Of a stretch of DNA of 23,464 nt, positions 15,427-22,044 are shown piece by piece; within the stretch, counting starts at the first letter, position 1; every line of letters starts with the position of its first letter. The DNA comes from a bacterium. Its GTDB lineage: Bacteria; Fidelibacterota; Marinisomatia; Marinisomatales; UBA1611. The notes beneath the pieces were generated by a model that worked only from the letters and a program-made list of their open reading frames with translations, was not told the DNA's origin and ran no database searches. Location: NCBI GenBank assembly GCA_038127595.1, contig JAYPIC010000027.1, positions 1 through 23,464 of the forward strand, in the 5' to 3' direction. A program made the position numbers and the translations under genes.

Positions 15427-15436
15427 CTGTTTTATG

Positions 15437-15509
<73 letters not shown>

Positions 15510-16501: not shown

Positions 16502-17689
16502 TTATTTTTTTCCGTGCTTTTTTGAATGGTTGTGATTGTGGTGAGAATTTTTATTATCAGATTTTTTTGATTTATCTAGTTTTGCACATTTATCTAAAGC
16601 ATTATCAACCATAGCAAGGAGTTCTGGATCATCTTTGATCTTTTTATTGAGAGCAAAGCTTGTAAATCTCATTTTATTTTTTGCTTTTTGTAAAATAGTT
16701 TCAGCAGTGCTTAGATCATTTCTGTAACGTTTTATTAAACTCAAAATATTATCCTGCCCAGCATAAATATCTTCCAATGCCTTAGTAGGATCTTTCTTCT
16801 GAAGCCTCTTCAAACGATTATTTAACTGCTTTATTTTTTGCTCCTGAGCAGAAACATCAGATATTGGGTCTGTGCTGTTATTAATATCAAGATCTACTAC
16901 AGTTAAATATTTCCCCTGCTTTCCATTGGAGTAGACATACGGTCCTTCGGGCTTTTGGGGCATTGAAGCGCTTGTCCTGTGTGTACTTCCGCTCGTAAAA
17001 ATAAAATCTGCTTTTGGAAAATTTTTTGCTAATGAAGATTGTGAACTACGATCAGTATTAACTAATAAAATAATTAAATCCACTTTACCTTTAATTTCAT
17101 TTATTAATCTATTCCCGGATATAATATAATCTTCAACACCTACGCTGGTCATTGTATCAGGAATCATATTTGACAGCCCTATAACCCCTAAATTCAATCC
17201 ATCTCTATTTAAGGTAACATATGGCTTAAATAATAATTCTCCAGAATCTCTATATTTGATATTGCCAGATATGAAGGGAATACTGGAGTACTTATTTTCC
17301 ATCTTTTTTAAAAATGAGATTCCAGCTAAGACTTCGTATTTACCGATGTTGAGAGCACTACACCCTATTTTCTCATAACCCTTTAACATTGTTTCACATC
17401 TAAACTTTTCTGAATTAATATTATTGACATTTATATTTGTTTTACTAAAAAACATATCACCAGCATCTAATATCAATGGATCATCGCCAGCTTTTCGCAT
17501 ATCTTCAATAGCAATGAATTTTCTAGACAGACCGCCCAGAGGATTCTTTTTTCATCCACACGGATCTAGTTGACCATGCACACTACCAGTAAGGACCATT
17601 TTTATTTTTGCCTCTTTACTAGGGTTTTCACATGAAGTATTGAAGACACTCATGAACGCAATCAATATATGTATATGTAAATATTTCAT
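16502..17689 (-). CDS. UshA-like (metallophosphoesterase-fold) selenoprotein, predicted lipoprotein, 395 aa with Sec46
   Basis: ATG 17689 is in frame with the track ORF (17500). It reads MKYLHIHILIAFMSVFNTSC-ENPSKEAKIKMVLTGSVHGQLDPCG[TGA 17554..17552]KKNPLGGLSRKFIAIEDMRKAGDDPLILDAGD. The extension restores a signal peptide/lipobox, the xHG motif and GGLSR. A SECIS-like hairpin follows the UGA. Confidence 0.9.
17516..17546 (-). promoter_or_regulatory. Bacterial SECIS element (selenocysteine insertion sequence)
   Basis: mRNA after the UGA: AAAAA-GAAU-CC-UCUGGGC-GGUCU-GUCUAGA-AA-AUUC. This gives a 7-bp upper stem (with 2 G-U pairs), a 4-bp lower stem and a GGUCU apical loop starting 19 nt after the UGA. 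Confidence 0.85.
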
Positions 17690-17698
17690 ACTCTAAAT

Positions 17699-18028
17699 TT
17701 AACCACCACTGGCTTTTACTTTAAAGCCTCTTTCAATTAAAATGTTCATAACTTTTTCTCGATGATTTCCTTGAATTAAAATCTGTTTATCTTTTACTGA
17801 TCCTCCGACACCACATGCTCTTTTAAGTTCTTTTGATATTTTTATTAATAGTTGGTCATTCCCTTTCATTCCAGTTACCACGGTAAGAATTCTATTTCCC
17901 GGTAACCTTTTAAGAAGACATTTAAGATTTTGTTTAACATTAGGTATTTGCTCTATACTTTCTGATTTTTCATTTTCAAATGAAAAATTTTCATCTGTAG
18001 AGTAAACAATGTTTTTTCGTTTTTTCAT
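17699..18028 (-). CDS. yciH: Translation initiation factor SUI1/eIF1-related protein
   Basis: IVYST N-terminus, KELKRACGVGGSVKDKQILIQGNHREKV, and C-terminal GFKVKASGG. Confidence 0.92.
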   Translation of the reverse strand: MKKRKNIVYSTDENFSFENEKSESIEQIPNVKQNLKCLLKRLPGNRILTVVTGMKGNDQLLIKISKELKRACGVGGSVKDKQILIQGNHREKVMNILIERGFKVKASGG

Positions 18029-19432: not shown

Positions 19433-20572
19433 CTACTTTCTAGCCATCCTGCTATTTAACTGCTTTAATTCAAGTCTTACAGCAGACACAAGTCTACTAC
19501 TAGGGTATTTTTTGAGAAAAGTTTTATACTCTTTTTTAGCTTGTTTTCTATTCTCTAATACACTTCCATAAATATATGAAACCATATATTGCGAATCCTG
19601 AGCCTGAGCAGAAGTTGGAAATAGTTTTACTACAGCTTTATACTCTCTTATTGCAGCATTATAGTCTTTGAGATCGTTCATATAAATTTCGGCCTTTAAA
19701 AATTGAGACCTAGTTGCATACTTACTCTCTTTAAATGAATTAACAATATTATCCAATACAAGGACGGATGATTCAATATTTTTCTTTCTTAATTTTTGAG
19801 CTCTAGTATAGAGTTCTTTCGGTCCCCAGTGGAGGTCATATAAAAATAATCCTTCATCGTACCGACTACGCTGTATACTATTACCATCTGCTGCGTATTC
19901 AACCCAGATACCATCCATTTCACCGTCAGAATAACTGCCATCACGCTTTAGCTCACCATTTTCGTGCCAAAATGTCCAATGACCATTCTGTATACCTCTA
20001 AAATAGTCTCCTTCTTCTTTTTTACTACCATTTGAGTACCAAGAAGAATAAGAACTATCTAGCTTGCCAGCGTAATAAAAAGCTTCTTCTTTAACCTGAC
20101 CATCCTCGAACCATTTTGTAATAGGACCTTCAAGACCACCATCGACGTAAGTAAGGATAGTTTTGGTGTTTCCATTAGGATACCATTTAACATGCTCACC
20201 AGTTGGAATACCATCTTTCCAGCTACCCTCTTGCCATTGTTGCCCGGTTTTATAATAAAAGGTCCAATTACCAGTAAAACCATGCATTGCAATTTTAGTT
20301 TCAGGGTCTATTTTTGAACCATTACCATCAAAATATTTACCAACCGCCATTTTTGACCCATTAGTGTGGTAGTATTCCCACTTTCCATTCCTCAATCCAT
20401 TTCGCAGCCTACCCTTGACCTTTAGATCCCCATTAGGCCAATACTCAAAAACCTTTCCGGAGTATGGATACATCATGACACCATTACTTGAAGTTTCTAA
20501 TTCCTCTAAGTTCAGCCCTTGTTGGGAGTAAGAAAAAGATATTAAAATTATAAAATAAAAGATTTTTTTCAT
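19433..20572 (-). CDS. Secreted MORN-variant repeat (YwqK-like) protein with C-terminal TPR domain (BamD/YbgF-like)
   Basis: Repeats of W.x.Y/F.x.NG...EG.Y..G...G.W followed by helical TPRs (SQFLKAEIY, YKAVVKLFPTS, FLKKYPSS). Start set at ATG 20572 (MKKIFYFIILISFSYS signal peptide). Confidence 0.8.
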   Translation of the reverse strand: MKKIFYFIILISFSYSQQGLNLEELETSSNGVMMYPYSGKVFEYWPNGDLKVKGRLRNGLRNGKWEYYHTNGSKMAVGKYFDGNGSKIDPETKIAMHGFTGNWTFYYKTGQQWQEGSWKDGIPTGEHVKWYPNGNTKTILTYVDGGLEGPITKWFEDGQVKEEAFYYAGKLDSSYSSWYSNGSKKEEGDYFRGIQNGHWTFWHENGELKRDGSYSDGEMDGIWVEYAADGNSIQRSRYDEGLFLYDLHWGPKELYTRAQKLRKKNIESSVLVLDNIVNSFKESKYATRSQFLKAEIYMNDLKDYNAAIREYKAVVKLFPTSAQAQDSQYMVSYIYGSVLENRKQAKKEYKTFLKKYPSSRLVSAVRLELKQLNSRMARK

Positions 20573-20661
20573 GATTTTTCTAATAATTTGTTTACGTCGG
20601 ATGCAGATTAACTTAACTACATTTAGATTAAGTGGCAATCCGAACTATTAATTTGTTATTT

Positions 20662-22044
20662 TTACTCATCAACATTCACTCTAGATAAAAAATTTCCTTT
20701 GATCTCGTAAGATGTTTCAACTTTACCACTCTCTAAGTAGTAAGTCCATCTACCATTTTCTTTACCGTTACTATAACTACCTTCTTCCTTAATTTGACCA
20801 TTGGAGTACCATTTCCTACGAGCGCCATCCAACTTACCATTTCTGTACCTTCTCTCTTCCCTGGCCTGCAATTCATACCATTCTTTCCATAAACCCGTTT
20901 TAAGGTCATTTAAGTAATGTCTCTCTTCTTTCCTCGCGCCATCAATAAACCAACTTTGCCACTTACCTTCTTTCTTACCATCTACAAAATTTTTCTCTTC
21001 CTTCTTTTGTCCATTATCGTACCAATAAACCCACTTTCCATCTTCTTTACCTGAATTATAATTAATTTTATGCTTCATAAAGCCATTGGAATAATATTGA
21101 ACCCAATCTCCAGATGGTAGCCCGTTATCATAATTTCTCTCCTCTTTCAGCTGCCCATTCTCAAACCAATATTTCCAATTACCAACAGGTACTTGCTCCT
21201 TATAACTAATGTCCTCCATCATTTGACCGCTCAAGAACCATTTTTGAAGCCTACCATTCCACCAACCATCTTTGAAAGTTACCATTTTTTCCTTTTGCCC
21301 AGATGGATACCAATATGTCCATGTACCGTCTTCTTTACCATTATTGTAATTGCCCTCTATTCTTAGAAGACCATTATCATGCCACTCTGCCCAGTATCCG
21401 TGTTTTAGACCGTGCCTGTAGCTATATTGCCTTTCAGGTTGCCCATTTGCAAACCACTCCATCCATTTTCCGTCCTTAACGGAATTCTTGTAAGAGCCTT
21501 CAAGCATTTTATTACCATTTTCCCAGATATCAAAAACTGGTCCAGTGTATGGCTCTGGAGAGCTTTCTTGATATAAGACATCACCCCTCCTGACAAGTAG
21601 AGACATAAAAATTGGATCTTTAACAGAGCCATCTAACTTAAAATAAGTGTACTCACTAGATAGCTTACCACCCTCATAAAACACTTCATAGGAAGTTTCT
21701 CCAGTCTGATAAAGACCGTATGCTAAGCCCCAATATTCTCTGTCTGTCCCAGGGAAATACTTTTTCCCATCCTTGAGATCAAGTCTATTTTCCTCAACAG
21801 GAACTATTATCGAACCTTCATTATCATAGTAGGTGTAAGAACCATCAATAGCACCAAGGTCAAAAACTCCCTCTCTCATCTTAGAGCCAGTACTATAAAG
21901 TCTATAAACCTTACCAGAATAAGGTTTGCTGTTTTTTGGATTATACAATAATCCTCTTTTAGACTCTAACTCTGATTCATTGATAAGGTCAGAACAACCG
22001 ATAGCAAAAAGTAGCATAACCAATAATAATAGGCGGAAAATCAT
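20662..22044 (-). CDS. MORN-variant repeat (YwqK-like) lipoprotein
   Basis: Lipobox-like LFAIGC at residue 17 and more than ten ~24-aa repeats of the form G.W..W..NGQ..EE..Y..GK.. Confidence 0.85.
   Translation of the reverse strand: MIFRLLLLVMLLFAIGCSDLINESELESKRGLLYNPKNSKPYSGKVYRLYSTGSKMREGVFDLGAIDGSYTYYDNEGSIIVPVEENRLDLKDGKKYFPGTDREYWGLAYGLYQTGETSYEVFYEGGKLSSEYTYFKLDGSVKDPIFMSLLVRRGDVLYQESSPEPYTGPVFDIWENGNKMLEGSYKNSVKDGKWMEWFANGQPERQYSYRHGLKHGYWAEWHDNGLLRIEGNYNNGKEDGTWTYWYPSGQKEKMVTFKDGWWNGRLQKWFLSGQMMEDISYKEQVPVGNWKYWFENGQLKEERNYDNGLPSGDWVQYYSNGFMKHKINYNSGKEDGKWVYWYDNGQKKEEKNFVDGKKEGKWQSWFIDGARKEERHYLNDLKTGLWKEWYELQAREERRYRNGKLDGARRKWYSNGQIKEEGSYSNGKENGRWTYYLESGKVETSYEIKGNFLSRVNVDE

Follow-up and report, generated by a model that had tools for sequence, protein, structure and literature searches.

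The dimetal site of UshA and CD73, with its ligands and the catalytic His, is marked by the motifs DxH, GD, GNH, H and GHxQ/H. UshA-like selenoproteins have been on record since 2008, when a GOS table listed a 'COG0737, UshA-like, CxU' class with 76 sequences (PMC2398784). The class was listed again in PMC9312934 and PMC13188914; in the accessible parts of these three papers its function is not given, and the main text of PMC13326102 does not mention it. Literature searches yielded no paper that gives a function or describes an operon, and other work on selenoprotein neighbourhoods (Haft and Tolstoy 2025) may bear on the class. A dedicated NCBIfam profile, NF041198 (UshA_like_PCGU), includes a C-terminal c554 haem domain at profile positions of about 400 to 519.

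The window analysed here (the whole stretch of DNA, 23,464 nucleotides) carries a gene for a predicted UshA-like selenoprotein (16502..17689, (-)), which comprises the 5′-nucleotidase N-terminal fold only, without the haem domain. Translation of the frame from 17689 to 16502 gave 395 residues and confirmed what a sequence-only reading of this DNA had proposed: the ORF called with table 11 begins at an internal ATG (17500), and the frame runs 63 codons further upstream to ATG 17689, which sits 9 nt past the yciH stop. The sole internal stop is a TGA at codon 46 (17552-17554) within HGQLDPCG*KKNPLGGLSR, where it would complete a Cys44-Gly45-Sec46 motif (17552..17560, (-)); the coordinates given in that reading were all right. 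NF041198 was the best family match (E 6e-64) and spans residues 9-389, across the TGA. In 30/30 relatives (loci from a 61-genome search, the window's own locus included, which as kin are not independent, so that counts among them overstate the number of events) the residues flanking the TGA on both sides are invariant, among them D-P-C-G before it. With the profile match crossing the TGA and the flanks invariant, the read-through frame is more than a product of chance.

The upstream extension adds the first strand of the fold and a hydrophobic leader ending in Cys20, a predicted lipoprotein signal peptide (17630..17689, (-)). This Cys aligns with Cys in all 30 relatives. It is preceded by N-T-S here and mostly by x-W-S among the relatives, and this atypical lipobox leaves lipidation a prediction. 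The sequence-only reading had likewise proposed a signal peptide with a lipobox-like FNTS-C20. The protein is likely exported and lipidated.

The sequence-only reading had further assigned the protein to a described bacterial class of UshA-like CxC/CxU selenoproteins, and both the 2008 GOS table and NF041198 bear this out. With the GOS class the locus shares UshA homology, the CxU motif (C44-G45-U46), marine origin and Cys homologues; as the class is described in the accessible part of PMC2398784, nothing was shown to differ, and its two defining features, UshA homology and CxU, are both found here. The protein also shares PCGU with NF041198 and aligns to profile positions 3-399 of 519, but it scores 216.5 bits against a cut-off of 275, has no C-terminal c554 domain and contains no CxxCH. 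Five homologues with a C-terminal c554 domain (PF13435) passed this cut-off and five haem-less ones failed it. We place the protein in the broad UshA-like CxU class, below the NF041198 cut-off; it is not a UshA enzyme.

In named genomes, a pattern scan yielded at least 120 loci, and the 70 distinct ones with long flanks were compared. Among the matches listed, haem-fused forms made up 52 of these 70 distinct named loci, 25 with Sec and 27 with Cys. No haem domain, either fused or adjacent, was seen in any Marinisomatota locus read, and a split-off haem gene was not found elsewhere in the genome (best E 0.048). Homologues with a named source come from Candidatus Marinimicrobia, and the close named loci from Neomarinimicrobiota, which makes a Marinisomatota (SAR406) bacterium the likely host. 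The family itself is already known; the haem-less form, the replaced metal site, the SECIS and the neighbour link were missing from the sequence-only reading and were added by the present analysis.

Neighbouring genes and a possible electron relay

A gene for a membrane-anchored rhodanese with C119-SDDD-C124 (15982..16470, (-)) lies 31 nt downstream of the selenoprotein gene, as indicated by PF00581, hydropathy and motif counts; a single-sequence model of this rhodanese was of low confidence (pLDDT 49). It is followed after 6 nt by a gene for a MauE membrane protein with C100-G-C102 (15532..15975, (-); PF07291, motif counts). Directly upstream of the selenoprotein gene is a yciH/SUI1-type gene (17699..18028, (-)), which is probably co-transcribed with it and is not thought to be functionally linked to it. 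The scan of the locus for promoters and terminators gave results equal to chance. A tRNA-Gly(GCC) gene stands at window positions 15436-15509, directly after mauE and on the same strand. Further away, at 19433-22044, two adjacent exported-looking repeat proteins were read by eye; we take their repeats to be MORN-like, with one of the two proteins presumably ending in TPR-like repeats.

MauE was found within 1 kb of the gene in 44/59 same-class genomes, the misses including nine that belong to a Sec-less genus, four from a single other family and one caused by a contig end. In several lineages the gene occurs without a MauE match (MauE was matched in 0/4 for lineage f22 and 3/12 for f12). In the loci read, the rhodanese lies beside MauE and two gene orders occur, gene-rhodanese-MauE in the taxonomic order to which the window belongs and, in further families of this class, rhodanese-MauE-gene; in two of these families the rhodanese and MauE are fused. 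CGC was present in all 61 neighbouring MauE proteins read (PF07291), and a two-cysteine loop in nearly all neighbouring rhodaneses. Within the order, yciH too has stayed beside the gene, so part of this pattern is accounted for by plain synteny. Searches of the 96% complete genome for DsbB, VKOR and a DsbA-type thioredoxin (Thioredoxin_4) gave no match. A second MauE gene in the genome (L248:1486-2202, on G000:C1) has a CAC motif and is fused behind a CxxC-containing domain, which we take to be of a metal-binding type.

Work in E. coli has shown that two MauE proteins of the CGC type can stand in for DsbB (bioRxiv 10.64898/2026.03.05.709764), and the gene adjacent to the rhodanese gene here likewise encodes a PF07291 protein with CGC. 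The accessible part of that preprint proposes thioredoxin-fold partners and names no rhodanese or UshA-like partner. In the mechanism that we propose, Cys44 and Sec46 would form a redox centre outside the cytoplasm, built on the scaffold of a former hydrolase, and their selenenylsulfide would oxidise a periplasmic thiol or a small sulfur compound. Electrons would pass from Cys44-Sec46 to the CxxxxC of the rhodanese, from there to the CGC of MauE and on to quinone; in other phyla, their acceptor would be the fused tetrahaem c554 domain. The haem fusions, the MauE link and the failure to find DsbB, VKOR or a DsbA-type thioredoxin were counted in support of a redox role. Counted against the relay was that the tested MauE works in E. 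coli without rhodanese or UshA-like partners. According to the accessible part of PMC13510729, a Sec-plus-haem enzyme can reduce polysulfide, which we regard as an analogy and not as evidence. Coupling of the selenoprotein to the rhodanese and MauE is a tentative proposal, with chances that we put somewhat short of even, and re-oxidation of the C-G-U redox centre via both proteins to quinone may likewise be slightly less probable than its opposite. More doubtful is the wider proposal for Marinisomatota, in which a selenium-tipped dead nucleotidase, a two-cysteine rhodanese and MauE would make up an envelope thiol-oxidation relay without DsbA/DsbB, the route from MauE to quinone replacing the fused tetrahaem domain of the family.

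It is possible, though in our view rather unlikely, that C-G-U of a real selenoprotein has a redox or structural role in which the neighbours take no part, the protein being at most a client of MauE and the synteny simply inherited. None of the loci retrieved from the phylum's other classes showed the rhodanese/MauE link, and neither gene stands beside the Cys form in the Sec-less genus. Among the matches listed, rhodanese or MauE was found in 0/52 haem-fused loci, whose flanks had medians of about 2.9 kb on the upstream and 1.7 kb on the downstream side. In addition, alignment showed that animal 5′-nucleotidases have two cysteines in the same loop, which presumably form a structural disulfide. 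Independence is harder to reconcile with the gene, rhodanese and MauE staying together in two different arrangements. It also sits poorly with the distribution of Cys368 (window 16586-16588), found in 42/50 rhodanese-linked forms vs. 5/35 unlinked Sec forms and 0/12 haem-less Cys forms, although this distribution follows the tree as well (FastTree, midpoint-rooted; no order of events was drawn from it). We consider Cys368 a candidate relay cysteine, confounded with phylogeny, and keep the coupled redox centre as our preferred, tentative reading.

Fold and replaced metal site

An AlphaFold2 model built from 148 sequences (pLDDT 94.4) matched the N-domains of 5′-nucleotidases (3ivd, Z 32.6; 1ush, Z 32.1, rmsd 2.4, 277 aligned) and SoxB (Z 29.2). 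The protein thus resembles E. coli UshA, CD73 and SoxB in the fold of the N-terminal domain (Z 29-33), and it keeps the DAGD motif. In contrast to them it has no C-terminal, substrate-binding domain: residue 362 is the last one aligned to 1ush, and the chain stops shortly beyond it. A C-G-U loop and a helical hairpin are added here, the latter inserted at about residues 280-335 (16685..16852, (-)) according to the secondary structure of the model. The chain ends in a His/Lys-rich tail (16505..16543, (-)), which has low confidence in the model. A Pfam search of the protein returned nothing at E 0.01.

We take the metal and catalytic positions of UshA to be D41, H43, D84, N116, H117, H217, H252 and Q254. 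In profile alignments these eight positions map to S36, H38, D78, K117, Y118, N211, G234 and T236, i.e., two of eight are kept and six are replaced, so that most dimetal ligands and the catalytic His that characterise UshA, CD73 and SoxB are gone. The replacements hold across the family, in which the C-x-C/U motif and the following GG-x-x-R are conserved instead. Since the metal ligands are replaced family-wide while these motifs are conserved, nucleotidase activity appears unlikely from the alignments. A redox rather than a hydrolase role is probable.

The conserved residues could also be put to another use. In a real selenoprotein, Cys44 and Sec46 may coordinate a metal or act as a nucleophile within a rebuilt site, the rhodanese being the partner for sulfur, which would make the selenoprotein a metal-binding protein or one acting in a sulfur-transfer/hydrolase step like SoxB. 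We consider this unlikely. Consistent with it, D78 is kept in 30/33 and H38 in 26/33 phylum sequences, N211 and S233 are conserved, SoxB has the same fold and His-rich tails are common in family-level relatives; yet H38 is not retained by more distant members of the family (His in 8 of the database rows covering the site), the rhodaneses carry their two-cysteine loop in nearly all cases, and the haem fusion suggests electron transfer. An active 5′-nucleotidase or phosphodiesterase with an incidental Sec would agree with the fold, the weak family matches and the naming of some database rows as phosphodiesterases, but is highly improbable given the six replaced metal/catalytic positions and the lack of the C-terminal substrate-binding domain. 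A redox role of C-G-U remains the reading that we favour.

Decoding of the UGA codon and the SECIS element

TGA was found at the position of codon 46 in 30/30 relatives (alignment of loci) and, at the same position, in 13/13 metagenome loci. The in-frame UGA aligns with Cys in homologues, a pattern by which selenoprotein genes are recognised. In databases, 41 homologues (e.g., P0002, P0006, P0017, P0031) are full-length with W at the Sec site, and most of the remaining ones are truncated after the UGA. Because DNA coding for proteins 95-98% identical to a W-type record has TGA, W at this site is best read as a product of code-4 gene calls. In the genome of the window itself, TGA serves as the stop of 156 of 868 long reading frames, TGG occurs 5396 times and there is a tRNA-Trp(CCA).

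Downstream of the UGA lies a predicted bacterial SECIS upper hairpin (17522..17540, (-)), with a 7-bp stem and a loop, GGUCU, whose first base is 19 nt past the UGA. Its loop, stem, 18-nt spacing and energy (-7.9 to -11.1 kcal/mol) all fit the bacterial consensus of a G in the loop, 16-37 nt spacing and at most -7.5 kcal/mol, as given in the accessible part of PMC13188914. In the SECIS of E. coli fdhF, GGUCU also begins 19 nt after the UGA; unlike that element, the one described here has an unbroken 7-bp upper stem, and the flanking sequence is unrelated. Codons +6 to +8 after the TGA are GGC GGT CTG in 30/30 relatives, while Gly codons upstream of the TGA use all four forms and CTG accounts for 4% of the Leu codons of the genome. 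When all distinct loci were compared, GGCGGTCT followed 103/132 Sec forms vs. 1/62 Cys forms. Bases in the stem columns pair in 88.6% of alignment cells vs. 25-51% for slid partners, and one stem pair switches between G-C, A-U and U-A in a compensatory manner in 10/30 sequences. An Rfam scan of the region gave no SECIS match. On its own, the GGUCU word has no diagnostic value: it occurs at this distance behind 36 of 85,654 TGA triplets, a frequency not exceeding that at other offsets, and of these 36 cases only the codon-46 site has long open frames on both sides. Folding energy was weak on longer windows (z -1.66, -1.05 and -0.35), and the z of -3.40 on 40 nt was obtained for a window chosen after the hairpin was seen.

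The genome (95.8% complete) has selA, selB, tRNA-Sec (selC) and selD, the last with its own UGA (C23:9610-10530(+)). In the assembly of the window, codon 271 of selB is an in-frame TAA (G000:C71, L011:2302-2304). This stop is unique, being seen in 1 of 57 selB matches across 61 genomes, and contigs of three DNA runs from three studies have a sense codon at this position, which lies within a small cluster of further differences; the DNA runs with the selB of this genome come from marine, estuary or biofilm samples. By these comparisons the TAA is likely an assembly error or a rare variant. A control genome (G047, 99% complete) gave no match to selA, selB or tRNA-Sec; its gene is a Cys form in which the codons are unfrozen.

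The sequence-only reading had seen in the UGA Sec46 of a 395-aa protein, had expected selA, selB, selC and selD in the genome, and had looked to homologues for TGA or Cys at position 46 with conservation on both sides; the conserved TGA, the SECIS and the four genes support it on each point. Trp in homologues, which it had held to be contrary evidence, does occur in 41 records, yet the underlying DNA is TGA and the objection does not truly apply. We conclude that codon 46 is almost certainly read as selenocysteine. That the TGA is a true stop in a pseudogene, is read as Trp or is undecodable in the strain owing to a broken selB is scarcely credible, since against the W records and the TAA at codon 271 stand the use of TGA as stop and of TGG with tRNA-Trp(CCA) for Trp, the TGA in DNA behind W records, the other 56 of 57 selB matches without TAA and the sense codon in three DNA runs; the Trp read-through and pseudogene readings were rejected.

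In a sample of 151 genomes of the phylum, in which selA and TGA were tallied by hand, the gene was matched in 133. TGA was present in 108/111 matches in selA-positive genomes and in 0/20 matches in three families without selA; two further TGA forms occur in genomes 86-88% complete in which selA was not found. The TGA position was read directly in 40 fetched phylum loci, of which 30 had U, nine had C and one was without the motif. In a genus of 0.8-1.1 Mb genomes (L050, L230-L232), selA was matched in 0/12 and the Cys-form gene is kept in 9/12. Its retention in small selA-less genomes suggests that the function matters even after streamlining. Two genomes of the window's genus (G002, G003; more than 90% complete) have selA and selB and gave no strong match to the gene. 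Some same-family genomes (L052:2811-3923, L053:2975-4075, L051) have a second TGA+SECIS copy away from rhodanese/MauE, and one same-family genome has a copy without the C-x-C/U motif. The genome holds other likely Sec codons, one at C15:4351(+) in a protein with G-C-T-U, after which the frame stays open for 334 codons. Two more are at C3:39338(-), in what we take to be a SelW-like protein with CxxU, and at C2:50857(-), in a presumably Bcp/peroxiredoxin-like one with TxxU.

Meaning for the family and the phylum

Of 151 genomes sampled from a major marine phylum, 133 have a match to this gene, which databases routinely truncate or mis-read as Trp; as a consequence its signal peptide and active motif are hidden. 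For the UshA-like class, which has been without a function since 2008, a direct test follows from the replaced metal site, from the haem fusions in other lineages and from the link to MauE. Cys forms that occur naturally in Sec-less relatives are open to expression in E. coli with no need for recoding. The relay, if real, would add a non-thioredoxin fold to envelope thiol chemistry, and a redox catalyst on such a fold would be nearly core to an abundant ocean phylum.
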